From positions 1 to 44,098 of the forward strand of contig DAIRFN010000004.1 of NCBI GenBank assembly GCA_036795065.1: a stretch of DNA of 44,098 nt, given 5' to 3'. Every line of letters begins with the position of its first letter. Within the stretch, counting starts at the first letter, position 1. The notes below the pieces were generated by a model that saw only the letters and a list, made by a program, of their open reading frames with translations, was not told where the DNA came from and did no database searches. A program made the position numbers and the translations under genes. The DNA is from Vicinamibacterales bacterium (GTDB taxonomy: Bacteria; Acidobacteriota; Vicinamibacteria; Vicinamibacterales; UBA2999). Below, in pieces: positions 1 to 34,582 of the stretch.

Positions 1-368
1 CACGGCCGGCCCAGGTGGATGATGGGAAACATCGCGCCGATCATCAGCGCAAAGACGGTGATGACCTCGGCGCAGCGCGTGACCGGGCGGCGCCAGCGCG
101 CGTTCACCAGGCGCAGGATGGCCGAGATGAGCGTGCCCGCGTGGCTGATGCCGATCCAGAACACGAAGTTGGTGAGGTAGAAGCCCCAGAACACGGGCCA
201 GTTGATGCCCGCCACGCCGATGCCGTACCAGAGCTGATAGCCCCAGGCGGCCGCGCCCGCGAGCACCACCGTCGCCAGGACCAGCACGGCCCCGTAGAAC
301 CACACGGAGGTGTGGAAGAGCGGGCGGACCAGGTCGTCGGCCAGCGGGTTATTGCGCGTCCGGTTCAT
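1..368 (-). CDS. NrfD/ActC-type polytopic membrane subunit (N-terminal part; gene runs off the left edge)
   Basis: Manual minus-strand translation from ATG at 368: MNRTRNNPLADDLVRPLFHTSVWFYG...INWPVFWGFYLTNFVFWIGISHAGTLISAILRLVNARWRRP..., a hydrophobic NrfD/PsrC-like signature. Overlaps the stop of the upstream Fe-S subunit by 20 nt. Absent from the ORF track because it has no stop codon inside the window. Confidence 0.8.
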   Translation of the reverse strand, partial: MNRTRNNPLADDLVRPLFHTSVWFYGAVLVLATVVLAGAAAWGYQLWYGIGVAGINWPVFWGFYLTNFVFWIGISHAGTLISAILRLVNARWRRPVTRCAEVITVFALMIGAMFPIIHLGRP

Positions 369-1062
369 GCCACCCCTGCCGTTGGAGGTAGGTGATCTTG
401 GGTTCGGCCCCGTGCTCCTCGAGGAGCTTCGAGCCTCGTGGCGACTCCGCCAGGCGCGCCACGCGGCTCTCGGGGTCGTTCAGGTCGCCGAAGACGAGCG
501 CGCCGGCCGGGCACGCCTGGGCGCAGGCGGGCTGCAGCGCGCCATCCACCAGTTCGCGCTTCTCGGCCTTCGCGCCCGACTTGGCGGCCTTGATCCGCTG
601 CACGCAGAACGTGCACTTCTCCATCACGCCCGATTCGCGAAGCGAGACATCGGGGTTCAGCTGCAACTGCAGCGGCTTCTCCCACTGCGGGTGGAAGAAG
701 TTGAAGAACCGGACGTTGTACATGCAGGCGTTGCCGCAGTAGCGCGTGCCGATGCAGCGGTTGTAGACCTGCGCGTTCAGCCCCTCGTCCGTCTGGTGGC
801 TGGCGTAGGTGGGGCACACGGCCTCGCACGGCGCGTTGTCGCATTGCTGGCACAGCACCGGCCGGAACTTCACGCGTGCCTCGGGGAACTCGCCCTCCCA
901 ATAGCGTTCGACGCGAATCCAGTGCATGGCGCGCCCGCGCGCGGCCTCCTCGGCGCCCACGGTGGGTATGTTGTTCTCGGCGTGGCAGGCCGTCACGCAG
1001 GCCTCGCAGCCCGTGCAGCGGTCCAGATCCACGACCATGCCCCAGCGATGTGCCATCCTCAC
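349..1062 (-). CDS. 4Fe-4S ferredoxin-type subunit of a CISM/alternative-complex-III-like oxidoreductase (ActB2/PsrB-like)
   Basis: 237-aa ORF with several ferredoxin Cys clusters (CTGCEACVTAC, CQQCDNAPCEAVC, CIGTRYCGNAC, CTFC...CAQAC). Start overlaps the stop of the upstream Mo-fold subunit by 4 nt. Confidence 0.9.
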   Translation of the reverse strand: MRMAHRWGMVVDLDRCTGCEACVTACHAENNIPTVGAEEAARGRAMHWIRVERYWEGEFPEARVKFRPVLCQQCDNAPCEAVCPTYASHQTDEGLNAQVYNRCIGTRYCGNACMYNVRFFNFFHPQWEKPLQLQLNPDVSLRESGVMEKCTFCVQRIKAAKSGAKAEKRELVDGALQPACAQACPAGALVFGDLNDPESRVARLAESPRGSKLLEEHGAEPKITYLQRQGWHEPDAQ

Positions 1063-3221: not shown

Positions 3222-3234
3222 CGGGGGGCTGAAA

Positions 3235-3873
3235 TCAGTAGTGGCAGGTCAGGCAGTCGTTCGACGCCTGCTTGGTCTTGTGGCAGTTCACGCAGAAGGC
3301 CATGTCCATCTCCACCACGCGCCGGGCCACGGTCTGCTGCTTCATGTCGCCGTGACAGGTGGAACAGTCCACGCCGGCGCGGATGTGCGGCGCGTGCTCG
3401 AAACGCACGTGCGCCTCGCGCGTGTAGCCGTAGACTCGCGGCCACGTCAGGTCCAGTCCTTTCTCCTGCATGGCGGTGAGCGACTGGATGATGGGCCGAT
3501 CCGTGGCGATCTGCGAGTGGCAGATCATGCAGGTGTTCACGCTGGGGAGGCCCGCGACCGGCCCGCGTTCGACACCCTCGTGGCAGTCCGTGCACACGAG
3601 CTCTTTCTCGAGGTGCAATTGATGGCTGAACGCCACGGGCTGCTCGACCTCGGGCCGTACGCCGAAGAAGGCGCGAAAGGCGTCCCCGGCCGAGCGGTGG
3701 GCCGTGGTGAACACCGACGGCGTGCCCCAGCGCGACGGCTGCGCCAGGCGCTGGGCCTGCTGGTGCTCGGCACGGCCGGACGAATTGCAGGCCGCCGCGG
3801 CCGCCCAGACCGCGGCGAGCAGGACGGCGACGGCGAGCCGGCGGCCGCCGAGCTTACTTCGCGACACCGCCAA
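3235..3873 (-). CDS. Pentaheme c-type cytochrome (ActA-like)
   Basis: 212-aa ORF with N-terminal hydrophobic anchor or lipobox (AAAAC) and five CxxCH motifs: CTDCH, CMICH, CSTCH, CVNCH, CLTCH. Confidence 0.9.
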   Translation of the reverse strand: MAVSRSKLGGRRLAVAVLLAAVWAAAAACNSSGRAEHQQAQRLAQPSRWGTPSVFTTAHRSAGDAFRAFFGVRPEVEQPVAFSHQLHLEKELVCTDCHEGVERGPVAGLPSVNTCMICHSQIATDRPIIQSLTAMQEKGLDLTWPRVYGYTREAHVRFEHAPHIRAGVDCSTCHGDMKQQTVARRVVEMDMAFCVNCHKTKQASNDCLTCHY

Positions 3874-4279
3874 GACTGCGGACGTAGTTCACGAGGTGCC
3901 AGGTGTCCTGATCGCTGAGCTTGCCCTTCAGGCCCTTCATCTTGAAGTCGGGGCCCGCACCCTCCTGGATGACGACGAAGATTTCGCCGTCACTCGACCC
4001 GCGGTCCCAGGTGGTGTCGGCAAGGTTCGAGGGCTTCATGTCCTTGGGGGCCGACGGGCTGTCGCCGCGCCCCGTCGCGCCGTGGCAGAAGCGGCAGTAT
4101 TTCTGGTAGAGCTGCTGGCCGGTGGCGACCGAGGCGGCGTTCGCGGCAACCGGGTTCTTCAGCTTGGCGGCCACCGCGCGCGGTGTCTGCTGCTGCGCGG
4201 CTTGCGCCGCAAGGCCGACGGCCATCGCGGCCACCCACATGGTCGTGATTCCCCACCCCAGCGCACACCGTCGGCTCAT
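3854..4279 (-). CDS. Monoheme class-I c-type cytochrome, exported
   Basis: 141-aa ORF with a signal-like N-terminus and a single CRFCH heme motif. 3' end overlaps the start of the pentaheme gene by 20 nt (same operon). Confidence 0.85.
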   Translation of the reverse strand: MSRRCALGWGITTMWVAAMAVGLAAQAAQQQTPRAVAAKLKNPVAANAASVATGQQLYQKYCRFCHGATGRGDSPSAPKDMKPSNLADTTWDRGSSDGEIFVVIQEGAGPDFKMKGLKGKLSDQDTWHLVNYVRSLGGVAK

Positions 4280-4449
4280 TCCCCTGTCTCCCTCGCGCGT
4301 ATTGACCTATGCATTCCCCGGTGGTGATTGATGCGGGTTAGAGATGACCCTCACAGCCGAGTGTCGCATCGTCACACAGGGCCGACTGGAATGCAACCAA
4401 ATGTCACCTTAGCCCCTCGTGCTACTCTCCCGCTGAGCTTCTGATCCGC

Positions 4450-9581: not shown

Positions 9582-10850
9582 ATGAACAGGGGCGCGTGGG
9601 TCGTGGGAGTGGCGGTGTTGGTCGTGCTCGGGGCGGTGCGGCCCTCGGCTCGCCAGGCGGTGGTCACGCCGCGGACGTTCACGTTCGCCGAGTCGCCGAA
9701 CGAGATGGTGCTCGAGAACGGCCAGACGCTCGGTCCCATCACCGTGGTCTACGAGACCTACGGTCGACTCGCCCCTGACGGCCGCAACGGCGTGCTCATC
9801 CTGCACGGGATGGGCGGCACCGCCCACGCGGCCGGCCGATACTCCAACAATCCGCAGGAACGCCCCGGCTGGTGGGATGCGCTCATCGGTCCGGGCCGGC
9901 CCTTCGACACGGATCGTTTCTACGTCGTCAGTCCGCAGGCCCTGGCCGGAGGGCATCGCGACAAGAAGCCGGGCACGGGCACCACCGGCCCTCATTCCAG
10001 CGACCCCCGCACGGGCAAGCCCTACGGGATGCGCTTCCCGACCTTCTCCATCCGCGACATGGTTCGCGTGCACAAGGCGCTGCTCGACCATCTGGGCGTC
10101 AAGCACCTGGTGGTGGTCTCCGGCGTGTCGATGGGGGGCTACCAGGCACTGGAGCTGATCTGCACGTTCCCCGACCTTGCCGATGGCGCCATTCCGGTGG
10201 TGGCGCGCGGGCGGTCGCCGGCGCAGCACGCGCTCGACCACTTCATCCGTCGCATGTCGATCATGAACGACGCGAACTGGCAGGACGGCGACTACGACGG
10301 CACCGGGCGGTATCCGACGCGCGGGCAGGCGCTCGCGGGCATGGCTTCGTCGCGGAGCTACAACAACGCGCCATCGTTCAACGACGACAAGCAGGCCGAT
10401 GTGCCCGGCGCGTCACCGTACGACAAGGTGACCAACAACTTCGCGTTCGAGGGTGAGCTCTGGGCCAATGCGCTGGCGAACGCCGAGCGGAACATCGACG
10501 CCAACGATTACCTGTACCAATCGCGTGCCCTGGCCAACCAGAACCTCGGCTGGAAGCGCGGCGACTACTCGCGCGGCTATCGCGCGAGCCTGGCCGATGC
10601 GCTGAAGCTGACCAGCGCCGCCGTCCTGATGATGCCGTCGAAGACAGACGATTCGGTGCGGCCGTCCTACGGTCAGGAGATCGTGGACATCATGCGGACG
10701 CTCGGCAAGCGCGCCGAGATCCACGTCATCGACTCGGAGCGCGGGCACAGCGGCTCGTCCGAGTTCTCGCAGATGATCGCGCCGATGAAGCGGTTCATCG
10801 CCAGCCTGCCCGGCGGAGCCGGCGCGCGCCGGCCGGCCGGGCAACCGTGA
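9582..10850 (+). CDS. Exported MetX (homoserine O-acetyltransferase)-family alpha/beta hydrolase
   Basis: 422 aa. GGAGG RBS. Signal-like MNRGAWVVGVAVLVVLGAVRPSARQ. MetX-family blocks VVYETYGRL, ILHGMGG, GWWDALIGPG, DTDRFYVV. Nucleophile elbow GVSMGG. Stop overlaps the GTG start of the next gene (GTGA). Confidence 0.85.
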   Translation: MNRGAWVVGVAVLVVLGAVRPSARQAVVTPRTFTFAESPNEMVLENGQTLGPITVVYETYGRLAPDGRNGVLILHGMGGTAHAAGRYSNNPQERPGWWDALIGPGRPFDTDRFYVVSPQALAGGHRDKKPGTGTTGPHSSDPRTGKPYGMRFPTFSIRDMVRVHKALLDHLGVKHLVVVSGVSMGGYQALELICTFPDLADGAIPVVARGRSPAQHALDHFIRRMSIMNDANWQDGDYDGTGRYPTRGQALAGMASSRSYNNAPSFNDDKQADVPGASPYDKVTNNFAFEGELWANALANAERNIDANDYLYQSRALANQNLGWKRGDYSRGYRASLADALKLTSAAVLMMPSKTDDSVRPSYGQEIVDIMRTLGKRAEIHVIDSERGHSGSSEFSQMIAPMKRFIASLPGGAGARRPAGQP

Positions 10851-12196
10851 GAGGCGCCCGCCTGCTCCTCGGGGGCGTGCTGGCTCTCGCGTCGGCCAGC
10901 GCGAGCGCGCAACCGGCCCACCAGCACCTGCGCCTCATCGCGCCGGCCGCGCCCGGCGGCGGGTGGGATCAGACCGCCCGCGCGATGCAGGCCGTGCTGC
11001 AGGCCGCCGGACTCGTGGGCACCTCGTCGGTCGAGAACATTCCCGGAGCCGCGGGCACCATCGGCCTGGCGCGTTTCGTCAGTGCGGAGCGCGGCAACGG
11101 CGACGTGCTCATGCTCTCCGGGCTCATCATGCTGGGGGCGGTGGTGACGCACCAGTCGCCGGTGACGCTGCGCGAGGTGACGCCCATCGCGCGGCTCCTC
11201 GGCGAGTGGGAGGTCGTCGTCGTGCCTTCCGCCTCTCCGTATCAATCGCTCGCCGATCTCACTGATGCCTTTCGCACCCGGCCCGAATCCATCTCGTGGG
11301 GTGGCGGATCCGCCGGCGGGACGGATCAAATCCTGGCCGGGCTGTTTGCCGACGCCGTGGGCGTGGCGCCCAACCGCGTCAACTACATTGCCTTCTCGGG
11401 CGGAGGCGAGTCGCTCTCGGCCATTCTCGGCGGACAGGTGTCGGTGGGCGTCAACGGACTGGCCGAACTGGCGCCCCACATCGAGGCCGGGACGGTTCGG
11501 GCGCTGGCCATCTCGAGCGGCGAGCGGCTGCCGAACCTGGACGTGCCGACGTTCCGCGAGCAGGGCGTCGACGTCGAGATCGAGAACTGGCGGTCCGTGG
11601 TTGCGCCGCCCGGGGTGAGCGCCACCGAGCGCGAACGCCTGGAGCAGACGACCGCGGCCATGGTGCGATCGCCGCAATGGCACGAGGCCCTCGCGCGGTA
11701 CCGCTGGAACGACCGGTACCTGGCCGGCGCGGCGTTCGCCCGCTTCTCGGCTGCGGAGGAGGCGCGCGTCGAGGGGATCCTGGCCCGGCTCGGCACCGGA
11801 TCGTCCGCCGGCGCCGCCTCGGTGGCCGCGGTGGGCCGCTATCCGCTGTTCGTCCTGTTCGGGCTTGCCGCCAGCGCGCTGTGGTCCGCGGGTGCGATGG
11901 TGCGCTGGCGAGCGCGAGCGGGCGAGACATCCGTCCCGGCGGCAGGCGTGGCCGACAGGTGGCGAGCGGTCATCCTGATTGCCGTGGCGGCGGGCATCGA
12001 TGTGCTGTTGCTGGACCGCGCCGGCTTCATCATCGCGTCAACGGCGCTCTTCTGGGTCACGGCGCGCGCGTTCGATGCCAGTCATCCCATCCGCGACGTG
12101 GTGTTCGCCCTCGCCATCTCGACCGCGTCGTACGTCGTGTTCGTGCGATGGCTGGACCTGGCGCTGCCGGCCGGCGTGCTCGCCGGGTGGCTCTAG
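10847..12196 (+). CDS. tctC: Tripartite tricarboxylate transporter substrate-binding protein fused to small membrane subunit (TctC::TctB)
   Basis: 449 aa. Signal peptide. Bug/TctC-like body ([38 protein letters not shown]). Then about 130 aa of hydrophobic TctB-like helices ([15 protein letters not shown]..., [31 protein letters not shown]...). Confidence 0.85.
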
Positions 12197-12224
12197 CGGG
12201 CGGCGACAAGGAACGCCGACGCTC

Positions 12225-13721
12225 ATGCTCGAGACACTGCGACTGCTTGCGGAGGGCTTTGCCAGCGCACTCACCGGGCCCCACCTGGCGTGGGCGTTCG
12301 CCGGCGTCACGTTGGGCACGGCCGTCGGTGTCCTGCCCGGCATCGGGCCCGCCCTCACCGTGGCGCTGCTCCTGCCGGTGACGTTCAGCCTGGATCCCGT
12401 GAGCGCGTTCATCATGTTCGGGGGCATCTACTACGGCGCCATGTACGGCGGATCGACCACCAGCATCCTCATCAACTCCCCGGGGGAGACCGCATCCATC
12501 GTCACCGCCATCGACGGCCACGTGATGGCGAGGAAGGGGCGCGCCTCGGCGGCGCTGACGACGGCCGCGGTGGGGTCGTTCGTGGCGGGCACGGTGGCCA
12601 CGCTCGCGCTCACGTTCTTCGCCCCGATGCTCGCCTCGGTGGCGCTCAGCTTCGGGCCCGCCGAATACTTCGCGCTGACCATGGTCGCGTTCACCACCGT
12701 TGCGGTGCTGCTCGGCGCCTCGCTGGCCCGCGGCCTGTTCAGCCTGTTCCTCGGCCTCGCGCTCGGCCTGGTGGGCATCGATCAGCTCACGGGGACGGCC
12801 CGCTTCTCGTTCGGGATTCCGCAGCTGCTCGATGGCATCGACGTGATGATCCTGGTCATCGGGCTCTTCGCGGTGGGGGAGACGCTGCACCAGGCCTGGC
12901 GACGCGGGCAGGATGAAGGCGACGTGGTGGCGCTTCACGATTTCACGGGCATGAGCCGCGACGACTGGCGGCGGTCGTGGAGGCCGTGGCTGCGGGGCAC
13001 GGCCATCGGCTTTCCCCTCGGCGTCTTGCCGTGCGGCGGCTCGGTGATTCCCACGGTCGTCTCGTACATGGTGGAGCGGCGGTTGAGCGCGCGACCCGAG
13101 GAGTTCGGTCACGGCGCCATCGAGGGCGTGGCCGGGCCGGAGGCTGCCAACAACGCCGCGGCCGCGGGGGTGCTGGTGCCGCTGCTGACCCTCGGCCTGC
13201 CCTCATCTGCCACGGCGGCGGTGCTGCTCACGGCCTTCCAGCAGTACGGGCTGCAGCCGGGGCCGCTGCTCTTCTCGACGCGGCCGGACCTCGTGTGGAC
13301 GCTCATCGCCAGCCTCTACATCGGCAACGTGATGCTGCTCGTCCTGAACCTGCCGCTGGCGCCGCTGTGGGCCCGGGTGATGCTGGTGCCGCGAAGGTTG
13401 CTGTTCGCCAGCATCCTGGTGCTGGCCTCGGTCGGCGCCTACAGCCTGAACCGATCGCTGCTCGATGTGGCGCTGCTCTACGCGGTGGGGATGATTGGCT
13501 GGGGCATGCGGGTGCTCGACATCCCGCTCGTGCCGGCGGTCCTGGGCCTCATCCTCGGGCCGCTCGCCGAGCAGCAGTTCCGCCGGGCCGTCGCCATCAG
13601 CGAGGGCGATTACTCGGTGTTCGTCACCCGTCCCATCTCCGCCGTCCTGCTGGCGTCGGCAGCGGCCGTGCTCATCGCGCCGCTCGTCTTCCGTCGCATG
13701 CGTGGAGCGGCCACGCCATGA
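12225..13721 (+). CDS. tctA: Tripartite tricarboxylate transporter large permease TctA
   Basis: Real start is ATG 12225 ([12 protein letters not shown]...) inside the longer track ORF. 498-aa polytopic protein with TctA blocks [42 protein letters not shown]. Confidence 0.9.
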
Positions 13722-15106: not shown

Positions 15107-16196
15107 ACTCCGGCGTCGCGGCGAGCACACGATGACGGTGTGCAATAGCTGCCGCTACTGCGAGCAGTACTGCCCCGTGTTTCCCGCGATGGAGCGGCGC
15201 CTGACCTTCAGCGACGCCGACCTCGCCTACCTCGCGAATCTCTGCCACAACTGCGGCGAATGCCTGTATGCCTGTCAGTACGCGCCGCCGCACGAGTTCG
15301 GCATCGACGTGCCGCGCACGCTTGCGGAGCTTCGGCTGCTGTCCTACGAGGAAGACTGCTGGCCGAGATCACTCGCGCAGGCGTTCAGGCGGCAGGGGCG
15401 CTCCACCGCAATCGCCCTGGCGCTGGGCTTCACCGCGATCCTGTTTGCCGCCAGCGCCCTGCTCAATCCGGCGGCACTGCTCTCGGGAAGGAGCGACGCC
15501 GACTTCTACGCAGTGGTGCCGCACGGCGTGATGGTGGGGCTGTTTGGCGCGGTGGGCGGCTTCGTCCTGCTGGCGCTCGGCTGGTCGGTGCGGGGATTCT
15601 GGCGACGCCTCTCCCCTGAAGGGTCACCACCGCTCACTGCGCGCGCGGTCGGTCGCGCCGTTGGCGACGCCCTGACGCTGCGCCATCTCCACGCCAGCGG
15701 CCCCGACTGCGTCTCGGCCGAAGAGGTGCGCTCGCCCTGGCGTCGCTGGTCGCATCACGCCACGCTCGGCGGCTTCTTTCTCTGCTTCGCGTCCACCTCG
15801 GTGGCGGCGATTTATCACGGCGTCTTCGGTTGGGAGGCGCCGCACGCCTACACGAGTCTGCCCGTGGTGCTCGGAACGGCGGGCGGCCTCGGCCTGGTGG
15901 CGGGACCGGCGGGGCAGTGGTGGCAGCGACGGCGGCGCGATCCCGCACTGGCCGATCCTGCGCAGCAGGGCCTGGATGAGTCGCTCCTGCTGCTCCTGTG
16001 GCTCACCAGCGTGACGGGCCTGCTGCTGCTGGTGCTGCGCACGCAGCCGATCATGGGTCCGTTGCTCCTGATCCACCTGGGTGTCGTGCTCGCGCTTTTC
16101 GTCACGCTGCCGTACGGGAAGTTCGTGCACGGGCTCTATCGCCTGGCTGCGCTGGTGAAGGACGCGGCGGAACGGGCCGCGAGCGACTCCGTCTAA
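15093..16196 (+). CDS. tcuB: Tricarballylate utilization Fe-S/membrane protein TcuB
   Basis: 367 aa. N-terminal CNSCRYCEQYCP and CHNCGECLYAC clusters followed by hydrophobic helices. GGAGGGAG RBS. Overlaps the tcuA 3' end by 14 nt. Confidence 0.88.
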   Translation: MPKSELRRRGEHTMTVCNSCRYCEQYCPVFPAMERRLTFSDADLAYLANLCHNCGECLYACQYAPPHEFGIDVPRTLAELRLLSYEEDCWPRSLAQAFRRQGRSTAIALALGFTAILFAASALLNPAALLSGRSDADFYAVVPHGVMVGLFGAVGGFVLLALGWSVRGFWRRLSPEGSPPLTARAVGRAVGDALTLRHLHASGPDCVSAEEVRSPWRRWSHHATLGGFFLCFASTSVAAIYHGVFGWEAPHAYTSLPVVLGTAGGLGLVAGPAGQWWQRRRRDPALADPAQQGLDESLLLLLWLTSVTGLLLLVLRTQPIMGPLLLIHLGVVLALFVTLPYGKFVHGLYRLAALVKDAAERAASDSV

Positions 16197-16271
16197 ACTG
16201 ATTAGGGCGTGACGGACGGCGTCGTGCCCTCGGTGTGCGTCGTGTTCCCGTGGACACCACAAGGAGCTGAC

Positions 16272-16673
16272 ATGACCAACGGCACCCGTGAACCCGACCC
16301 CTCGCTGGTCACGGTCACGCACTTCACCTACGCCCTGCACGCGCTCGGCCTGGCGATCGGCGCGTTCGGCGCTGCCAGTGTCCTGGGCTCGTTCCTCTTC
16401 GGCTGGCCGTCCATTGTCGCGGTGATCATCAACTACGTGAAGCGCGGCGACGCGCGCGGCACGTGGCTCGAGTCGCACTACACCTGGCAGATCCGCACCT
16501 TCTGGTTCGCGCTGCTCTGGGCCTGCATCGTGGGCATCGCGGGCCTGGTGCTGGCGATCGTGGTGGTGGGCATCGCCATCTGGGTGGTCGGGCTGTTCGT
16601 CCTGGGCATCTGGGCCATCTATCGCATTGCCCGCGGGTGGCTGGCGCTCAGGGATCGCCGGCCCGTGCCGTGA
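16272..16673 (+). CDS. Small integral membrane protein (about 4 TM helices), function unknown
   Basis: ATG 16272 preceded by AAGGAG at 16261-16266. 133 aa, strongly hydrophobic (LAIGAFGAASVLGSFLFGWPSIVAVIINY..., FWFALLWACIVGIAGLVLAIVVVGIAIWVV...). Confidence 0.65.
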   Translation: MTNGTREPDPSLVTVTHFTYALHALGLAIGAFGAASVLGSFLFGWPSIVAVIINYVKRGDARGTWLESHYTWQIRTFWFALLWACIVGIAGLVLAIVVVGIAIWVVGLFVLGIWAIYRIARGWLALRDRRPVP

Positions 16674-16744
16674 ACCCCAATTCGACTTCGTGCCGTATCT
16701 CGTGTCCTTCGTGTTCTTCGTGTTCCCGTGACAGGTGCGGCGCC

Positions 16745-17593
16745 TCAGTTCGGGACGCCGTCGTCCGTGGCGGCGGGCCGCGTCGCCGTGACCGCCTGCT
16801 CGATGCGCGCCAGCCGTTCGGCGATGCCCACGATCTCCACGTGCGCCTTCACGTTCACCTGGTAGTCCAGGTCGGTCCGGATGCGGTCGCGCTCCGACTG
16901 CCGGTTCTGGCTCACCAGCACGAAGATCGACAGGAAGATGGCCTCGAGGCTCACGATCAGCGTCAGCAGGCCGAACGGGTACGGATCGAAGGCGAGCGCC
17001 GCCGGCAGCAGCCCGGCGCGCGCCACCGTGTTCAGCAGGATCCAGGTACCGAACCACGCGATGTGCGTGAGGGTGAACGCCTGGCTGGCGGCCACGGTGG
17101 CGACCACATCGCTGACCCGCTGCCAGCGCGTGGTGGCCTCGGCAATCACCTGGTTGGGGTTCGGCAGGCCACGGATGGTGGCGGTGCTGGCCCGGAGCCG
17201 CGCGCCCAGCACCTGCAGCATGTCGATGGCCACGTCCGGGCGCTGGCGCAGGAAGGCATGAAGCGGCTCACGCGGCAGCGCCAGCAGCGAGCAGTCCGTG
17301 AGCGCCCGGACCGTCGCGCTGCGCGGGCCGCCGTCGATGAGCCCGAGCTCGCCAAACACGCCGCCGGGACCGAGCGTGTCGAGCCGCACGTGCCCGCCCC
17401 TGGCGTCCGGTGCGGTGACCTCGACACGGCCCTGGTCGACGATGAAGAGCGTGTCGCCCCGGTCGCCGAACCAGAAGATGGGTTCGTTGGCTTTGACGGA
17501 CTGGCGGGTCATGAGGGCGAGCAGGGCCTGCCGGCCCGCCTCGTCCAGTCGCGCGAACAGCGGGACGTGGGACAGCTGCGTCGGCGTGCTCAC
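16745..17593 (-). CDS. Cyclic-nucleotide-binding domain protein fused to DUF1003-type membrane domain
   Basis: Real start is GTG 17593 (VSTPTQLSHVPLFARLDEAG...), overlapping the upstream stop (GTGA). cNMP-binding core FGELGLIDGGPRSATV. C-terminal TM pair plus SQNRQSERDRIRTDLDYQVN, typical of DUF1003. Confidence 0.85.
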   Translation of the reverse strand: MSTPTQLSHVPLFARLDEAGRQALLALMTRQSVKANEPIFWFGDRGDTLFIVDQGRVEVTAPDARGGHVRLDTLGPGGVFGELGLIDGGPRSATVRALTDCSLLALPREPLHAFLRQRPDVAIDMLQVLGARLRASTATIRGLPNPNQVIAEATTRWQRVSDVVATVAASQAFTLTHIAWFGTWILLNTVARAGLLPAALAFDPYPFGLLTLIVSLEAIFLSIFVLVSQNRQSERDRIRTDLDYQVNVKAHVEIVGIAERLARIEQAVTATRPAATDDGVPN

Positions 17594-21544: not shown

Positions 21545-21756
21545 GGCAACTCCTCAGGGGTCCCTCTGCGACGGGCTGCCATCATCTGGATCATGTCGTT
21601 CGTGGGAACAAGCGCCTCGGCTCCACACATGCCGGATTCCCGCCAGTTCACATCAGCACATCGCGCGCGATTGGCGGCATCAAGGGGTGACGACGGCGGA
21701 TACAACGCGCCCAACCTGAGCACGAGACTTGCATAACTGTCAAGCGGGGGTGGCCC

Positions 21757-22218
21757 ATGAAAGTCCACGACATCATGACGGGGGATGCACTCTCGTGTCA
21801 GACCGACTCGGACCTTTCGTCGGCCGCACGGATCATGCTGAATGGCCGTGTCGGGACGCTGCCGGTCGTCGACGCTCGTGGACACGTGACCGGGATGCTC
21901 ACCGATCGAGACATTGCGATGGCGACGGGTCTCCGCGTGCGGCACGCCGCGGACATCGCGGTTCACGAGGCCATGAGTGGCCGTGTCCGCGGCTGCCTTG
22001 CCTATGACGACGTTGCCGCGGCCCTCAGGCTGATGCAGGATGCACGTGTGCGCCGGCTGCCCGTTCTCGACGCGAACGGTCGTCTTGCCGGCATCCTGTC
22101 GATTGACGACATTCTCCTGCGCGCGGTCGGCGAAGAGGACGGCATTGCGCCGGCGGACTTCCTGAGCGCCATGCGCGTGATAGCTGCAGGACCGAGTGTC
22201 GAGCCCGAGGTGAGCTGA
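21757..22218 (+). CDS. CBS-pair domain protein
   Basis: 153 aa. MKVHDIMTGDALSC...LPVVDARGHVTGMLTDRDI and RRLPVLDANGRLAGILSIDDIL, two CBS repeats. Confidence 0.85.
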   Translation: MKVHDIMTGDALSCQTDSDLSSAARIMLNGRVGTLPVVDARGHVTGMLTDRDIAMATGLRVRHAADIAVHEAMSGRVRGCLAYDDVAAALRLMQDARVRRLPVLDANGRLAGILSIDDILLRAVGEEDGIAPADFLSAMRVIAAGPSVEPEVS

Positions 22219-22236
22219 AAGGACGTCACGAGGCCG

Positions 22237-22575
22237 ATGTTTCACGCGCTGCATGTGATGTTCGAGACACAGGATAGCGAGCTCGCCGTCGCGGTGGACG
22301 ACATCGCCGAGCGCGTTCGCGCGCTTGGCTTCCCAGCGCCCGGCACTTACAAGCAGTTCGCGCAGCTCTCCTCGATCAAGGACGAGGACGGGGTGCCCAA
22401 AGCGCAGGACATGATTCGGTTGCTCGTCGACGGCCACGAGACGGTGGCGCGCACCGCCCGGGAGGTCTTCAAGGTCGCGGAGGGTGTGAGCGACCAGCCG
22501 ACCTGCGACTTGCTCACCCAGCGCATGCAGGTGCACGAGAAGACGGCGTGGATGCTGCGAAGCCTGCTCGAATAG
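22237..22575 (+). CDS. Dps/ferritin-like protein, N-terminally truncated relative to canonical Dps
   Basis: 112 aa starting MFHALHVMFETQDSELAVAVDDIAERVRALG, which matches Dps helices B onward. The roughly 45-aa helix-A region has no room upstream. GAGG lies 3 nt before the ATG. Confidence 0.7.
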   Translation: MFHALHVMFETQDSELAVAVDDIAERVRALGFPAPGTYKQFAQLSSIKDEDGVPKAQDMIRLLVDGHETVARTAREVFKVAEGVSDQPTCDLLTQRMQVHEKTAWMLRSLLE

Positions 22576-28818: not shown

Positions 28819-29586
28819 ATGAGCACGTCTCATCGCGATTTCAAGAACGGCCTCTACGAACAGCTCGCCAGAATCGGCAAGACGCTGGGGAGTCCCCGTC
28901 GGCTGGAGTTGCTCGAACTGCTGGCGCAGGGGGAGCGCACCGTGGAGTCGCTGGCCTGGGAGACCGAACTGTCGGTTGCCAACACCTCGCAGCACCTGCA
29001 GGCCCTTCGGCAGGCGTCGCTCGTGGAGAGCCGCAAACAGGGGCTCTTCGTCTACTACCGGCTGGCCGATCCCGCCATCTGCGACCTGTGCACGGCCATT
29101 CGAACCGTGGCCGAGAGGCGCCTGGCCGACCTGGAGCGCCTCGTCCGTGAGCATTTCGGCGATCGGTCAGACCCGGAGCCCGTCCGGATGAACGATCTTC
29201 TCGCGCGCGTCCGGTCCAACGACGTCATCGTGCTGGACGCGCGGCCGGTCAATGAGTACGAAGCGGGCCACATCGCCGGCGCCATTTCCATTCCGATCGA
29301 CGAGCTCCAGGACCGGCTGCGGTCCCTCCCGACGGGCAGGGAGTACGTCGCCTACTGTCGTGGGCCGTACTGCGTGTACGCCGATCGAGCGGTTGAACTG
29401 CTGAGAGCCAGCGGACGGCGAGCGCGACGGGTGCTCGAGGGATTCCCTGAGTGGCAGGCGGCAGGGTTGCCGGTCACGCGCGGACACGATGGGCCTTCCA
29501 CGACGCCTCGGTCGGGCGGCCCCCGGCGCCGTCGGTCAACGCGCACGTCTGGCAGCGCGAGGAAGGTCTCCCGGCGTACTTCGTGA
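28819..29586 (+). CDS. ArsR/SmtB-family HTH regulator fused to a rhodanese domain (paralogue 1)
   Basis: 255 aa. ArsR wHTH (LGSPRRLELLELLAQGERTVESLA...SQHLQALRQASLV) followed by rhodanese (VLDARPVNEYEAGHIAGAISIP, active-site loop YCRGPYC). Confidence 0.88.
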   Translation: MSTSHRDFKNGLYEQLARIGKTLGSPRRLELLELLAQGERTVESLAWETELSVANTSQHLQALRQASLVESRKQGLFVYYRLADPAICDLCTAIRTVAERRLADLERLVREHFGDRSDPEPVRMNDLLARVRSNDVIVLDARPVNEYEAGHIAGAISIPIDELQDRLRSLPTGREYVAYCRGPYCVYADRAVELLRASGRRARRVLEGFPEWQAAGLPVTRGHDGPSTTPRSGGPRRRRSTRTSGSARKVSRRTS

Positions 29587-29621
29587 CGTTCCGGTGATTC
29601 GAGTCCCCCTGGAGGTGGCCA

Positions 29622-30404
29622 GTGCCAGTGATGTGTCCCGTCGATCTCGATGTTGCAACCCTGCGAACGGAAGTTCAGTCCATGTACGCGCAAGTCGCTG
29701 CGGCTCCCGACGGTGCGTTTCATTTCCATCGAGGACCTCACTACGCGGCCGCGCGACTCGGTTATGACGCCGCGGAGCTGGCAGCGCTGCCCGCGGACGT
29801 GACGGCGTCGTTCGCCGGCGTGGGCAACCCGCACCGGATCGCATCGATTAGCGAGGGCGCGGTGGTGCTCGACGTCGGCTGCGGCGCCGGAACGGACCTG
29901 CTGCTGGCCGCACGACGGGTCGGGCCCCATGGTCGGGCGATTGGCGTGGATATGACGGAGGCGATGCGCCGCCGGGCGGCAGCGGGCGCCGCAACGCACG
30001 GGCTGGCCAACGTCGACGTCCGCGACGGAGACGCGACAGCCCTGCCGGTGGATGATCAGAGCATCGACGTCGTCATCTCGAACGGTGTGCTGAACCTCGT
30101 CCCCGATAAGCCGCGGGCGTTCGCAGAGATCGCCCGCGTGCTCAAGCCAGGGGGCCGGGCGCAAATTGCCGACATCGTCATCGGAGAAGTCCTGCCCGAC
30201 GATGCCCTGCGAGACATCGACCTCTGGACCGGTTGAATCGCCGGCGCTCTGCTGGAAGCAGAGATGATCGAGGCGTTTGCCTCAGCGGGATTCAGCCCGC
30301 GCATCGTGACGCGATTCGACTGTTTCGCGGGAACCACCAAGGAGCGGACCGCCCGGCGATACGGCGTCGTCGGCGTCAACGTGTTGGCCATTCGGTCGCG
30401 ATAA
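29622..30404 (+). CDS. ArsM/UbiE-type SAM-dependent methyltransferase with in-frame TGA (candidate selenocysteine at codon 205)
   Basis: GTG 29622 with GGAGG 6 nt upstream. Motif I VLDVGCGAGTD. VISNGVLNLVPDK and RVLKPGGRAQIAD. TGA at 30234-30236 interrupts LWTG-x-IAGAL. The same frame stays open for 55 more codons (IAGALLEAEMIEAFASAGFSPRIV...) to TAA at 30402-30404. The next gene starts 14 nt after that TAA. Confidence 0.7.
30247..30263 (+). promoter_or_regulatory. SECIS-like hairpin 10 nt downstream of the in-frame UGA
   Basis: CTCTGCT-GGA-AGCAGAG, a perfect 7-bp stem with a G-rich apical loop. A possible 4-bp lower helix pairs CGCC (30239-30242) with GGCG (30272-30275). Spacing resembles the E. 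coli fdhF-type bacterial SECIS. Confidence 0.55.
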
Positions 30405-30418
30405 CAGCGTCATCGACC

Positions 30419-30985
30419 ATGGCATGCTCCTGCTGCACATTCGGTGACACTGCGGACCAACAGTTCACGCGCGACAGGGTCGCCAGGGATCTGGTGCGCC
30501 TCCGCCGCAAGGGGCCTGGCCGGACGGCGCAGCTTCTGCGCGATGGCCTCGCAGCGGCGGATCTGATCGACGGCACCGTGCTCGATGTCGGAGCGGGCGT
30601 GGGCGGCCTGACATGGGCGCTGCTCGACCAGGGGATGGCACGAGCGATTGTCATCGAGGCCTCAGCGGCGTACCTCGCCGCCGCATCGGACGAAGCGACA
30701 CGGCGTGGCCGGTCAGGGATGGTGCAGTTCGTACGGGGTGACTACGTGACGATGGCACCGCAAGTGCCCCGGGCGACCGTCGTCACCCTCGACCGCGTCG
30801 TGTGCTGCTATCCATGGTTCGAGCCGCTCCTGGAGCAGGCCGGGCGGCACGCTGAACGGAGCGTCGCCCTCTCGTATCCGCGCGACCGTTGGTTCGTGCG
30901 GGTGGGACTGTGGCTCGAAAACCTGATGCGGAGATGGAAGGGGAACCCGTTTCGCACCTTCGTTCACTCTCCGACGCAGATGTAA
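30419..30985 (+). CDS. Class I SAM-dependent methyltransferase with Cys-rich N-terminus
   Basis: Real start is ATG 30419 (MACSCCTFGDTADQQF...). The upstream part of the 250-aa track ORF overlaps the Sec-MTase tail in another frame. Motif I VLDVGAGVGGLT. Internal VVCCYP. 188 aa. Confidence 0.8.
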   Translation: MACSCCTFGDTADQQFTRDRVARDLVRLRRKGPGRTAQLLRDGLAAADLIDGTVLDVGAGVGGLTWALLDQGMARAIVIEASAAYLAAASDEATRRGRSGMVQFVRGDYVTMAPQVPRATVVTLDRVVCCYPWFEPLLEQAGRHAERSVALSYPRDRWFVRVGLWLENLMRRWKGNPFRTFVHSPTQM

Positions 30986-31073
30986 CACGCGCTAGAGCGG
31001 TGCGGGTTCGAACGGGTGAGTCGCAGCCAGACACCCGCGTGGGCAGCCGACGTGTTCGAAAGGCGGCGCTGAT

Positions 31074-32225
31074 TCACGGCTTGCAGTAGAGCCACGACTT
31101 CTCGACCCAGACCTTCCCCAGGTGCCACCGCCAGCTTGGAGGACGCAAGCGCACCGCCGGCCTGGGTTCCGCGTAGAAATCTCCCCCGCCAAAGCCGGCC
31201 TTGCCACCGCCTGTCTCGATGAAGCAGTCGCCATGGCCATCGAAGCGCCCGGTCTGGACCCGATCCGCAATGGCATGCGCGATTCTCCGCCACGACCGCG
31301 GCTTCCTTGTGCGCGAACACACCAGCCTTCGGCAGCGGCTTCCCGAGCGCGAGCGGGATCGACACGACGTCGCCGATCGCGTAGACATTTGGCCACCGCG
31401 TTTGCAGCGTGTGCCGATCGACGGCCATCCACCCGCCTCGCTGGCCAAGCCGCTCTCGCGAATCACGGCTGGTGCCCGGTGAGGTGGCACGTACGCCAGC
31501 AGGTCGAAGTCGACTTCCGTACTGTTCGCGAACGTGAGTCGCTTCCGGTGGGCATCCACCGTCGTCACCTGGTGTTCCGGGTGGTATGGGATGCCTTTCG
31601 CGGCCAGCAGCTGTGTCACGGCGCCGGAGACGTGGGGCCCCGCCACCCCCATGGGCGCCGGTTCGGCGGCATAGACCTCGATCTGCACGCGATCGCGCCG
31701 ACCTCGTCTGCGGAACCAGTCGTCAATGAGCATCGCGCCTTCGTACGGCGCCGCCAGGCACTTGTAGGCCGGGGCGGCGGTGAGCACGATGATGCGACCG
31801 GCACGGAAGGCCTGGAGGGCCGGCCAGAGTGACTCGGCTCCGGCGCGGTCGTAGAAGTTGTGACCCGCCTGGGCGAGGCCGGGAATCGACTCCGGCGCCA
31901 ACTCGGCTCCCAGCGTGATCACCAGGTAGTCGGCCGTGTGTGCCTGCCCTGCCATCGTCACGATCCGTTGGTCCGGATCGATGTGCTCGACGTTGCCAAC
32001 GCGAACGTCGATGCCCTTCCGCGCCAACCGCGCCAATGGACGGGTGATCGCGTCAGCGGTACGCCGGCCGACCCACAACAGCGACGGCGCAAACACGTGA
32101 TCGCGCTCGCGATCCACCAGCACGACGCGGTGCGCTGCAGGCAGGCGCTGGCGGAGCGCACGCGCGGTCGCGACTCCGCCGACGCCGCCGCCCAGAATGA
32201 GAATCGTCTTCGCGTCAGCCACCAT
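31074..32225 (-). pseudogene. Sulfide:quinone-oxidoreductase-like flavoprotein with two compensating frameshifts
   Basis: Start MVADAKTILILGGGVGGVATA (ATG 32225, AAGGA RBS). Frame X reads to ...VIRESGLASE. The conserved GGWMAVDRHTLQTRWPNVYAIGDVVSIPLALGKPLPKAGVFAHKEAAVVAEN lies in another frame (about 31285-31437). Frame X then resumes with IAHAIADRVQTGRFDGHGDCFIETGGGKAGF...SWLYCKP. Confidence 0.7.
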
Positions 32226-32239
32226 CTCCTGGTCCTTTC

Positions 32240-32602
32240 CTAGAACACGAGCGTGCGATCCGCCCACTGCACCCAGTTGGTGAGCTCGTCGAGAGAGCTT
32301 CGATGGGAGGTGTCCGTCAGCTCGGCGTCCGTCATGCCCCTGGCGTCCATGCATGTGGCGCACACGCCAATCTCGCCACCGTGCCGCCCGACGTATCGAA
32401 GCATCACTTCGGCGTTGTAATACCCCTGCGGTACCTTCTGGCCCCGTTTTGCGCAGCTCGCCGCATCGCCCATGAGGAACACTTTCACTTCCTCACCCTC
32501 GCGTGTGGACAACGACCCCGCGAGGCGAAGGGCGTTGTAGCTACGTTCGGTGCCGTAGGGCGGGTCGTTCAGAACGAAAAGCGTCTTTGGCATGGTCTTC
32601 AT
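32240..32602 (-). CDS. DsrE/DsrF-family sulfur-relay protein
   Basis: About 120 aa. MKTMPKTLFVLNDPPYGTERSYNALRLA... and GVCATCMDARGM active-site Cys region. GGGAGG upstream. First or second ATG uncertain (32602 or 32593). Confidence 0.8.
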   Translation of the reverse strand: MKTMPKTLFVLNDPPYGTERSYNALRLAGSLSTREGEEVKVFLMGDAASCAKRGQKVPQGYYNAEVMLRYVGRHGGEIGVCATCMDARGMTDAELTDTSHRSSLDELTNWVQWADRTLVF

Positions 32603-33884
32603 CGCCTCCCGCGTCACCATTGGCGGTGACCGGTGAGAGTGTTTCACGCATGCGCGCCGCCGACACGGCTCCGGATACGAACGTGAGCGCGGCGATGAGC
32701 CACATCGCGGCCTGCAGCCCGAAGGCGTCGGCTGTCAGTCCGGCCAGGAGGGCCCCGATGGCGTACCCGAGGTCGCGCCACAGGCGATAGACACCGACCG
32801 CCGATGCGCGCCACGACGGGTGGGCGACATCGCCGATGGCGGCAAGGAGCGTGGGATACACCATGGCCGTGCCCAGTCCGAGCAACACCGCACCCACCAC
32901 GAACCCGGCAAATTCGTGCACGACGGTCACCACGGCGATGCCGACGGCCTGGATCCACATGCCCCAGACGATGAGCGGCTTCCGCCCGGTGCGGTCCGAC
33001 AGGGCTCCGGTCACCAGCTGCGCAAGACCCCACGTGGCCGGATAAATGGCGGCGAGCAGTCCCACCTGTGCCAGGTCCATCCCGGCTGCGGCAAACACCA
33101 GTGGAAACAGGCCCCAGGCCATCCCGTCGTTCAGGTTGTTGACGAGCCCCGCCTGGCTGACGCTCGACAGATCGGGGTTGAGCAGCGTGGTCCGCCAGAA
33201 GACCTCGCGAGGCGTGGGTGTGCGGTGGGGCGGCAGCGTCCCGAGAAGCGCGGATTCATGCGAGACGTGATGACGTGTCTCGCGCACGAGGAGTGCGGAG
33301 AGCGCGAGCCCGACGGCCACGAACACCACACCGAGATAGAATGGCTGCGGACGGATGCCGTAGCGTGCGGCAATCCAGCCCGTCGCCAGCGCACTGGCGG
33401 CAACCGCCACGTATCCGGCGAACTCGTTCAACCCCATGGCCAGCCCACGCTGTCTCGCGCCGACCAGGTCGATCTTCATGATGACGGTGGTCGACCAGGT
33501 GAGACCCTGGCTGACGCCGAGCAGGAGATTCGCGAACAGGATCCAGTTCCAGCTCGGCGCCCACATGAGAAGGAAGGGCACCGGGATGGCGACCAGCCAA
33601 CCGACGACCAGCACGTGCTTGCGACCGAGACGATCTGACAGGCGACCTGCGCCGTAGTTGGTGAGCGCCTTGGCGACACCGAACACCACGATGAACGACA
33701 GCATGGCGGTGCGCGCGGCGAGGTGGAACTCCTGCTCGGCCATCGCCGGCAGGATGCTGCGTTCCAGGCCGACCATGGCGCCGACGAACGCGTTGACGAC
33801 CACCAACAGGGCAAACTGCGCGAGGTTCTCGCGCAAACCCAGGCGTACGGCAGTAGCCTCGGGCTGCGGCGCGGCCGACGTCAT
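32541..33884 (-). CDS. MFS transporter
   Basis: 447 aa with 12 TM-like hydrophobic segments and the MFS loop motif GRLSDRLGRKHVL. Start overlaps the upstream regulator stop (ATGA). 3' tail overlaps the DsrE-like start by about 60 nt. Confidence 0.85.
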   Translation of the reverse strand: MTSAAPQPEATAVRLGLRENLAQFALLVVVNAFVGAMVGLERSILPAMAEQEFHLAARTAMLSFIVVFGVAKALTNYGAGRLSDRLGRKHVLVVGWLVAIPVPFLLMWAPSWNWILFANLLLGVSQGLTWSTTVIMKIDLVGARQRGLAMGLNEFAGYVAVAASALATGWIAARYGIRPQPFYLGVVFVAVGLALSALLVRETRHHVSHESALLGTLPPHRTPTPREVFWRTTLLNPDLSSVSQAGLVNNLNDGMAWGLFPLVFAAAGMDLAQVGLLAAIYPATWGLAQLVTGALSDRTGRKPLIVWGMWIQAVGIAVVTVVHEFAGFVVGAVLLGLGTAMVYPTLLAAIGDVAHPSWRASAVGVYRLWRDLGYAIGALLAGLTADAFGLQAAMWLIAALTFVSGAVSAARMRETLSPVTANGDAGGDEDHAKDAFRSERPALRHRT

Positions 33885-34582
33885 GGCCGTCCACCTGCGC
33901 GACGGTCATCACCCGTGTCCACGCGCCATCCCTGCGCCCGCCACTCGGGCACGCCGTGTTCCAGGCGGTGGGCGCGGAAGCCCTTCCGGCGGAGGAGATC
34001 GACGGCATCGAGCGCCATCACGCAGTACGGGCCCCGGCAATAGGCCACGATGTCGCGGCGTTTCGGCAACCTGCCCACGCGCTTCCCGAGGTCTGCGAGC
34101 GGCACGGAGATCGCGCCGGGAAGATGAGCCGCCACGTACTCGTCGCGGGGACGGACGTCGATGAGCGTGACCTCGCCGGCGCGGACGCGCCGCACGAGTT
34201 CGTCATTACCCACCGGCTCCAGTGCGCCACGCTTCTCCAGGTACTGGCGCGTGACGTGCTGGACCTCCACCAGTTGGGACTCCGCGAGGCGTCGCAGCTG
34301 GAGGAAGAATTCGCCGACCCGTGGGTCCGCGAGGCTGTACGTCACGTACAGGCCGGCCTTCTCAGCCTCGACCAGGCGCGCGCGTCGCAGCACCTGCAGG
34401 TGGTGCGAGGTCGTCGCGGCGCTCTGGCCCGTCTGGTGGGCGAGCGCGTCGACCGTCCGTGGCCCTTGCGACAGCAGGTCGAGCAGCTCGAGCCGGATGG
34501 GGCTGGCGGTGGCCTGGCCGACACGCGCGATCTGTTCGTAGATGACGGCCTTGAACGAAGCCGAACGGGTCTTCGCGGTCAT
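33881..34582 (-). CDS. ArsR/SmtB-family HTH regulator fused to a rhodanese domain (paralogue 2)
   Basis: 233 aa. SPIRLELLDLLSQGPRTVDALA...SHHLQVLRRARLV, then LIDVRPRDEYVAAHLPGAISVP and YCRGPYC. Same architecture as 28819-29586, with roughly 40-45% identity by eye. Confidence 0.88.
   Translation of the reverse strand: MTAKTRSASFKAVIYEQIARVGQATASPIRLELLDLLSQGPRTVDALAHQTGQSAATTSHHLQVLRRARLVEAEKAGLYVTYSLADPRVGEFFLQLRRLAESQLVEVQHVTRQYLEKRGALEPVGNDELVRRVRAGEVTLIDVRPRDEYVAAHLPGAISVPLADLGKRVGRLPKRRDIVAYCRGPYCVMALDAVDLLRRKGFRAHRLEHGVPEWRAQGWRVDTGDDRRAGGRP

Follow-up and report, generated by a model that had tools for sequence, protein, structure and literature searches.

A probable selenocysteine at the arsenic-binding position of an ArsM-like methyltransferase from a Vicinamibacterales bacterium

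Does the in-frame UGA codon that interrupts a methyltransferase gene in the genome of a Vicinamibacterales bacterium (Acidobacteriota) end the protein, or is it read as selenocysteine (Sec), and on what substrate might the resulting enzyme act? The gene lies in a stretch of 44,098 nucleotides (contig DAIRFN010000004.1 of assembly GCA_036795065.1, positions 1 to 44,098), referred to below as the window; all the coordinates are those of its forward strand, and its GC content is about 67%. The open reading frame (ORF) starts with the GTG at 29622 on the plus strand, which yields the N-terminus M-x-x-x-C-P common to the orthologues, and it reaches the TGA at 30234-30236 directly after the residues ...ALRDIDLWTG. 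The same frame then stays open for 55 more codons (IAGALLEAEMIEAFASAGFSPRIVTRFDCFAGTTKERTARRYGVVGVNVLAIRSR), up to the TAA at 30402-30404, and the residues across the interruption read DIDLWTG-U-IAGALLEAEMIEAFASAGFSPR. The ATG of the next gene is located at 30419, 14 nt past the TAA. A perfect 7-bp hairpin, CUCUGCU-GGA-AGCAGAG (30247-30263, with the loop GGA at 30254-30256), is present 10 nt past the UGA. These features had been described in an earlier reading based on the letters of the window (the sequence-only reading), which proposed a candidate selenoenzyme. When they were re-read base by base, the coordinates of the gene, the UGA, the open frame, the 7-bp hairpin and the spacing of the next gene were all found to hold.

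Taken alone, the TGA, the open frame and the hairpin are not beyond chance, because open frames past a TGA are common in this GC-rich window, where 50 of the 98 TGA codons ending frames of at least 150 codons (51%) precede at least 55 open codons, and because the local fold is unremarkable (z = -1.39; 17 of 200 shuffled sequences fold equally well). The continued GC signature at the third codon positions (GC3) is a first hint that the stretch past the TGA codes: GC3 amounts there to 0.78 in the same frame, versus 0.62 and 0.55 in the shifted frames. The possibility that TGA might be globally reassigned was rejected, since this codon serves as the ordinary stop in 13 of the 18 confident genes of the window. 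Scanning the window for other coding frames interrupted by TGA returned the target only, the other two matches being adjacent genes sharing a frame. As regards the CBS-domain ORF (21691-22218) and the ferritin-like ORF (22219-22575), which are in the same frame with a TGA between them (22216-22218), the profile match of the ferritin-like ORF begins at position 27 of 142, and the pair are most likely merely adjacent genes.

Relatives of the gene were collected by scanning one genome per GTDB species, which yielded 80 loci, and four more loci were added from look-ups; among these 84 loci, four (L001-L003 and L006) carry the same or nearly the same sequence. In the tblastn alignments, the codon aligned to residue 205 was found to be TGA in 69 loci, TGC in 12, TGT in two and CGC (Arg) in one, and in essentially all 84 loci the alignments continue past this codon as far as residue ~256-260. 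The TGA forms are retained down to about 54% identity and are distributed over several phyla: they were identified in Acidobacteriota, Myxococcota, Gemmatimonadota, Thermodesulfobacteriota, Binatia, Chthonomonadales, Verrucomicrobiia, Eisenbacteria, and some Proteobacteria. The Cys forms constitute a single clade, which is mostly proteobacterial and includes isolates, Plasticicumulans lactativorans being among these loci; the homologue of Sulfurifustis variabilis (P0126) also shows Cys in the aligned motif. Most of the 120 closest database proteins, which are 75-100% identical, come from metagenome-assembled genomes (MAGs) of Acidobacteriota/Vicinamibacterales, and about 118 of them are annotated as stopping at the same residue (184-208 aa). 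On many contigs, the gene callers report a separate ORF of 43-46 aa directly downstream.

The 45 codons located past the hairpin showed a synonymous rate (pS) of 0.66 and a nonsynonymous rate (pN) of 0.36 in 22 orthologues. Since pN is lower than pS, these values indicate that purifying selection acts on the downstream codons in that frame. Conservation throughout the family extends over the last ~55 residues and includes the FDCF motif and a GT(S/T)KE-like motif. In one orthologue carried by a 1.58-Mb contig (L029, 4613-4680), a 1-nt insertion is present just past the hairpin (GAGCTGCATCGACGT versus GAGCTCATCGACGTG in close orthologues) and breaks the downstream frame after 20 codons; this insertion is probably an assembly indel or the mark of a pseudogene.

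The hairpin shows a high degree of conservation in the TGA forms. At the level of the family, the stem consists of positions 13-20 paired with positions 24-31 (counted from the U of the UGA), i.e., 8 bp closed by a 3-nt loop. In 62 distinct TGA-form sequences, 96% of the cells in these eight pairs are paired, and between 58 and 60 of 60 distinct TGA-form sequences form each of the core pairs (14:30 to 20:24). Compensatory changes were detected in the 62 sequences at four of the eight pairs (20:24, 19:25, 18:26, and 15:29), the counts being CG 35, UA 21, and AU 3 at 20:24, CG 57 and UA 4 at 19:25, and GC 57 and CG 3 at 18:26. None of the 500 column shuffles reached the covariation score observed, and the pairing falls to 28-52% when the 3' partner is slid by one to three columns. 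The first base of the loop is G in all the TGA-form sequences, and the loop reads GGA in 52 of 60. In the 15 Cys or Arg forms, the stem is broken despite the similarity of the peptide encoded (0 of 15 are paired at 15:29 and 2 of 15 at 19:25). Across the ten codons of the hairpin, pS is 0.28 versus about 0.6, which means that the synonymous rate is roughly halved, as should be expected if the constraint of an RNA structure is laid over that of the coding sequence (CDS).

The geometry of this hairpin fits that of the bacterial selenocysteine insertion sequence (SECIS) elements, and it may bind SelB as they do. The basis of the comparison is the bSECIS model, which is reportedly that of Zhang and Gladyshev from 2005. 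Like the SECIS elements of the E. coli fdhF type, the hairpin in the window lies inside the CDS, immediately 3' of the UGA, its stem starts 9-10 nt past the UGA, its apical loop is 17 nt away and begins with G, and its upper stem is 7-8 bp long. It differs from the fdhF element in that its loop is very small (3 nt, GGA) and no bulged U matching U17 of fdhF is evident.

On account of the Sec/Cys pair at residue 205, the conserved downstream frame, and the covarying hairpin limited to the TGA forms, we read 29622-30404 as a single gene which very probably encodes a selenoprotein of 260 residues, the UGA at 30234-30236 being read as Sec205. The comparative evidence decisively favors the predicted recoding, and the mechanism that we infer is as follows: the UGA would be passed over as a stop during translation, the hairpin would recruit SelB along with Sec-tRNA(Sec) so that selenocysteine would be incorporated at residue 205, and translation would then go on for 55 codons, up to the TAA at 30402. 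Three points of the sequence-only reading were borne out by these comparisons: the UGA that it placed on a conserved Cys is matched by Cys at the aligned codon in 14 loci and in the solved ArsM structures, the similarity to homologues expected in the last 55 residues extends to the whole family, and the hairpin, missing from the Cys forms, is kept with compensatory changes in the 62 distinct TGA-form sequences.

Two other explanations for the UGA have to be considered. If it were a genuine stop, the product would be a truncated methyltransferase of 204 residues, either the product of a pseudogene or a shortened enzyme, or else the gene would be split and the C-terminal lobe would be translated from the ATG at 30264 in the form of a 46-aa ORF. 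Automatic callers do annotate exactly the 204-aa protein together with an ORF of 43-46 aa on many contigs, TGA is the usual stop in the source genome, and open frames past a TGA are common in the window. The same TGA has been held, however, over a very long divergence, in 69 loci from several phyla, with Cys at this column in the remaining homologues (apart from the Arg forms dealt with below), and purifying selection acts on the codons past it in that frame. Only 10 of the 62 distinct sequences have the internal ATG, CTT or CTC being mostly found instead; the covarying hairpin tracks the TGA state; and the Rossmann-like fold would be broken by a split, with the loss of the residue equivalent to the catalytic Cys. 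A genuine stop is consequently extremely improbable. It is also very unlikely that the UGA is recoded, whether by the SECIS/SelB route or by a suppressor tRNA, into a residue other than Sec, such as Cys delivered by a selC*-type tRNA(Cys) or the residue carried by an allo-tRNA. A tRNA(Cys) mimicking tRNA-Sec and possibly reading UGA has been reported in deltaproteobacteria, as have unusual allo-tRNAs, which are possible nonsense suppressors, in Acidobacteria (PMC5389517); the aminoacyl-tRNA delivered by SelB cannot be told from the sequence alone, and Cys is functional at the position of residue 205 in the sister clade. The window and the 60 loci scanned yielded no tRNA of this kind, however, and selC* has been reported in anaerobic Firmicutes, Thermodesulfobacteria, Nitrospirae, and Proteobacteria, not in Acidobacteria (PMC5389517). 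The combination of a UGA, a SECIS element and Cys homologues normally means Sec, and existing catalogs list the family among the selenoproteins. In addition, TGC would give Cys without any costly recoding, so the long-term retention of the TGA and the SECIS element would argue for a Sec-specific benefit.

Several observations weigh against the selenoprotein reading. Apart from the unremarkable local fold mentioned above, Rfam returned no SECIS or other RNA family, either in the whole window at the gathering threshold or in 30180-30340 at E values up to 10. In two homologues, the position of Sec is occupied by Arg (AGA in P0019 and CGC in L076), which is odd in the case of a strictly essential residue. 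As far as the Sec machinery is concerned, no tRNA (ARAGORN) and no selA, selB, or selD genes were found in the window; the ~684 kb of flanks of related loci contained no sel genes in tblastn searches with E. coli SelA, SelB, and SelD, which gave one weak GTPase match only; no tRNA-Sec was detected by ARAGORN in 60 related loci; and there were no sel genes among the genes called within 10 kb on either side on three more long contigs (L088-L090). The reach of these searches was limited to the window and the flanking stretches of relatives. Some members of the Acidobacteria have been listed as decoders of Sec (PMC1794560), which lends indirect support to the presence of the machinery.

The codon of P0019 (L087, 1241-1243) is one base away from TGA, and it is carried by a single 1.5-kb contig in which the hairpin is weakened. 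The CGC of L076 (4610-4612) occurs in a gammaproteobacterial MAG, and the protein has an extra Cys ~15 residues upstream. These Arg homologues may reflect errors, decay, or a relocated catalytic residue.

A second selenoprotein candidate shares its contigs with the Sec-methyltransferase gene, at a distance of a few kb, in two related MAGs (L011 at ~8120 and L019 at ~5152, both on the minus strand). It is a secreted peroxiredoxin-like gene of the BCP/PrxQ type with a TGA at the position of the peroxidatic Cys, in the motifs ...FAKAFSPA-U-TAEC... and ...FTSG-U-TAEC..., respectively; ~110 conserved codons follow the UGA, and a hairpin, CACUC-CGUGA-GAGUG, is located 17 nt past it. The presence of this candidate suggests that the lineages to which L011 and L019 belong may decode Sec. 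When the loci were scanned naively for Sec/Cys pairs, all against all, shadow-frame matches dominated the output in these genomes of high GC content, and the peroxiredoxin-like pair was the only credible result.

With Cys in place of the stop, the 260-residue product matches the Pfam families Methyltransf_31, Methyltransf_25, and Methyltransf_11. Its best NCBIfam match is the arsenite methyltransferase PRK11873 (NF008823), at 223.8 bits versus a cutoff of 263, followed by ArsM/AhpD (NF041537), ArsM/DUF2284 (NF041536), and methyltransferase/UXPK-star (NF047649), at 194-217 bits versus cutoffs of 460-575. The Cys-form members and the other Sec-form members score 203-223 bits against the same PRK11873 cutoff, and none of them reaches any NCBIfam cutoff. 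The idea that a C-terminally extended clade (L055-L068) might consist of UXPK-star double selenoproteins was rejected, as there is no UXPK tail. The best PDB sequence matches of the window protein are CrArsM, CmArsM, and human AS3MT, at 31-36% identity. The AlphaFold model of a Cys-form homologue has a pLDDT (predicted local distance difference test) of 91.8, and the best Foldseek matches of this model are ArsM/AS3MT structures, with a template modeling (TM) score of 0.75-0.77 and a root-mean-square deviation of 2.1-2.3 Å.

In the PDB alignments, the UGA aligns with the Cys of geCLgGAL, the residue (Cys224 in CmArsM, Cys206 in the human enzyme) by which As(III) is bound. The equivalents of the other two As-binding cysteines are absent family-wide: that of CmArsM Cys72 (human Cys61) is Val in FAGVGNPH, where GVGN replaces GCG, and that of CmArsM Cys174 (human Cys156) is Gly in VISNGVLNL, where SNGV replaces SNCV. 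The Gly column of SNGV is invariant in an alignment of 45 sequences, which are almost wholly Cys forms, and VISNGVLNL is the consensus, at a level of at least 90%, of 66 Sec forms. The residues conserved in both the Sec and Cys forms are Cys5 (95%), Sec/Cys205 (100%), and Cys234 in FDCF (88%). Because two of the three As-binding cysteines are missing and the NCBIfam cutoff is missed, the protein is ArsM-like and not a canonical ArsM. The ArsM-type identity assigned in the sequence-only reading thus stands as regards the fold, the family, and the position of the Cys, with this qualification.

The selenium of Sec205, which is located at the position of the catalytically essential As-binding Cys, would face the methyl group of S-adenosylmethionine (SAM); the selenolate may bind a soft, thiophilic substrate and present it for methyl transfer. 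Cys5 and Cys234 are likely partner ligands or redox partners that would replace the canonical Cys72 and Cys174. The features of the locus are listed in Table 1.

Table 1. Features of the methyltransferase locus and its neighborhood, in coordinates of the window.
Feature	Coordinates	Strand	Basis or remark
Shine-Dalgarno-like GGAGG	29611..29615	+	6-nt spacer before GTG 29622; read from the sequence
CDS of the ArsM-like SAM-dependent methyltransferase, probable selenoprotein, 260 residues (204 + Sec205 + 55)	29622..30404	+	Pfam, NCBIfam, tblastn, GC3, pN/pS
In-frame UGA, probable Sec205, motif DLWTG-U-IAGAL (UxxG)	30234..30236	+	Codon alignment; PDB alignments
Putative bacterial SECIS-type hairpin	30246..30264	+	Covariation, 62 distinct TGA-form sequences
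ArsR/SmtB-family helix-turn-helix (HTH) regulator fused to rhodanese, active-site loop CRGPYC	28819..29586	+	Pfam HTH_5/HTH_20 and Rhodanese; NCBIfam HTH_metalloreg
Second small class I methyltransferase with conserved CC motifs (N-terminal M-x-CC; DRVxCCYP)	30419..31072	+	Pfam Methyltransf_25; in-frame TAA 30983-30985
Major facilitator superfamily (MFS) transporter	32541..33884	-	Pfam MFS_1
Second ArsR-HTH/rhodanese regulator, paired with the MFS gene	33881..34582	-	Pfam HTH_5/HTH_20 and Rhodanese; NCBIfam HTH_metalloreg

The upstream ArsR-rhodanese regulator ends 36 nt before the Sec-methyltransferase gene, and the two genes probably belong to one operon. This regulator weakly resembles TsoR and BigR, the latter of which senses sulfite. 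In 16 other Sec-type loci, as well as in L004 and L090, a homologue of it lies upstream of the Sec-methyltransferase. Homologues of the second methyltransferase occur directly downstream in 11 Sec-type loci, and those of the MFS transporter within 4 kb in 17, usually between the regulator and the methyltransferase. The usual order of the module in the Sec-type loci is the regulator, the MFS transporter, the Sec-methyltransferase, and the second methyltransferase. Such a module may allow toxic metalloid or chalcogen species to be sensed, methylated, and exported. In the second methyltransferase gene of the window, the TAA replaces a Gln of the homologues, and conservation continues in frame over the 28 codons past it (HALERCGFERVSRSQTPAWAADVFERRR), as far as the TGA at 31070-31072; it seems that this TAA arose recently by a nonsense mutation or is an error of sequencing.

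Other genes are present in the surroundings. An uninterrupted ORF on the minus strand (31074-32363) encodes a pyridine-nucleotide-disulfide oxidoreductase resembling sulfide quinone reductase (SQR); its best NCBIfam match is "type III sulfide quinone reductase, selenoprotein subtype", at 179.7 bits (cutoff 525), covering only the first 266 of 406 positions. A MerA-like flavin adenine dinucleotide (FAD) oxidoreductase is also nearby in the window. At the beginning of the window (3-4306, minus strand), there is a cluster encoding an NrfD-like membrane subunit, a 4Fe-4S protein, a molybdopterin-oxidoreductase-like subunit, the best match of which is QrcB, below the cutoff, and two c-type cytochromes; this cluster resembles a quinone-interacting module of the Qrc/alternative-complex-III type. 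The contigs of other relatives add a metallo-beta-lactamase-fold gene, TauE, DoxX, a methyltransferase-rhodanese fusion, and a DsrE-like gene. In an acidobacterial MAG (L090), for example, a methyltransferase-rhodanese fusion (16094-17047) is located ~6 kb from the Sec-methyltransferase gene, and, at 10841-13539, a metallo-beta-lactamase-fold gene lies between the latter and the pair formed by the MFS and second methyltransferase genes.

Which substrate such an enzyme might act on can be answered only in graded terms. The neighborhood fits a soft toxicant, an arsenical as well as a sulfur or selenium species. As a rough estimate, trivalent arsenicals have somewhat less than an even chance of being the substrate, chalcogens of the sulfide, persulfide, or selenide type come next as a serious possibility, and any other substrate is unlikely. 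The functional side of the reading, with its arsenite methyltransferase relatives, has to contend with the family-wide absence of the Cys72 and Cys174 equivalents, and with the fact that no arsB, acr3, or arsC genes were seen nearby, the neighbors being sulfur-flavored instead (rhodanese, SQR-like, DsrE, TauE, DoxX, and metallo-beta-lactamase-fold genes). In human AS3MT, Cys156 as well as Cys206 is reported to be required for every methylation step (PMC3877260); of these two, only the equivalent of Cys206 is kept in the family.

It is accordingly conceivable, and we tentatively keep it in view, that the enzyme has nothing to do with arsenic: it might be a Sec-dependent methyltransferase for sulfide, persulfide, selenide, or another soft electrophile, with the rhodanese-ArsR protein as a persulfide/selenide sensor in a chalcogen detoxification operon. 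The absence of the residue equivalent to human Cys156, essential for arsenic methylation (PMC3877260), along with that of the Cys72 equivalent, would be in line with this possibility, as would a rhodanese-fused regulator weakly similar to BigR and TsoR and devoid of the classical As-sensing context, the occurrence of SQR-like, DsrE-like, metallo-beta-lactamase-fold, TauE, DoxX, and methyltransferase-rhodanese fusion genes among the neighbors, and the lack of ars transport or reductase genes in the 44 kb. The closest relatives in terms of sequence, profile, and fold are all arsenite methyltransferases, however, and the Sec falls exactly on the As-binding Cys; an ArsR-family regulator, an MFS efflux protein, and a methyltransferase would also make a plausible arsenical module, in which Cys5 and Cys234 could supply the missing ligands. 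In soil metagenomes, this large clade is counted as "arsM" or "SAM-dependent methyltransferase". That it might instead form a separate kind of Sec-dependent methyltransferase, devoted to reactive sulfur or selenium species or to another soft toxicant and built around a new Cys5/Sec205/Cys234 active site, is a rather doubtful proposition; if it were true, the abundant soil Acidobacteriota would have an uncharacterized route for the volatilization or detoxification of chalcogens.

The consequences of reading the UGA as Sec205 are first of all a matter of annotation. The public records, including those of NCBI and JGI, split the gene into a 204-residue "methyltransferase" and an orphan ORF of ~46 residues, and no NCBIfam model captures the subfamily, so that the selenoprotein goes unrecognized in many Acidobacteriota MAGs. 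From the ecological point of view, the fragments are often labeled "arsenite methyltransferase", and since the subfamily lacks two cysteines needed by the canonical ArsM, they may inflate or distort the arsM-based estimates of arsenic methylation in soils. From the biochemical point of view, the subfamily provides a natural Sec/Cys pair at a metalloid-binding position, with other partner cysteines, on which a selenolate can be compared with a thiolate. Current knowledge is not overturned by these findings.

The sequence-only reading mentioned that Sec-containing methyltransferases had appeared in metagenomic selenoproteome surveys, and the literature agrees with it. Arsenite methyltransferase has counted as a selenoprotein family since Fomenko et al. 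2007 (Science), as that paper is cited in PMC13188914 and PMC3877260; the Global Ocean Sampling (GOS) selenoproteome survey of 2008 lists "Arsenite S-adenosylmethyltransferase (PRK11873)" among its selenoprotein families (PMC2398784); and a review from 2026 describes arsenite methyltransferase with the motif UxxG, together with three fused variants for which NCBIfam models exist (PMC13188914). Sec-containing ArsM-type enzymes, which are common in soil Acidobacteriota, have been known since 2007, and what is new here is therefore an unannotated member, the subfamily of which differs from the canonical ArsM in its cysteine complement.

When compared with the Sec-containing arsenite methyltransferase PRK11873, the window protein belongs to the same fold family, has the Sec at the same site, its U-I-A-G corresponding to UxxG, and is of similar length to the model (272 positions), but it scores below the cutoff, carries GVGN in place of GCG and SNGV in place of SNCV, and has its own Cys5 and Cys234. 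With the fused forms NF041537, NF041536, and NF047649, it shares the methyltransferase domain, aligned nearly end to end (from residues 9-10 to about 233-249), and the same UxxG, whereas it lacks the AhpD and DUF2284 domains as well as the UXPK tail, carries a single Sec with neither a second nor a third, and ends 55 residues past it. In comparison with CmArsM (4FR0/6CX6), CrArsM (5EVJ), and human AS3MT (8XT7), the SAM-binding core and the loop of the As-binding Cys are common features; unlike the canonical ArsM/AS3MT enzymes, which consist of 320-390 residues, the window protein is ~260 residues long, lacks the extra C-terminal domain, and would carry Sec in place of Cys224.

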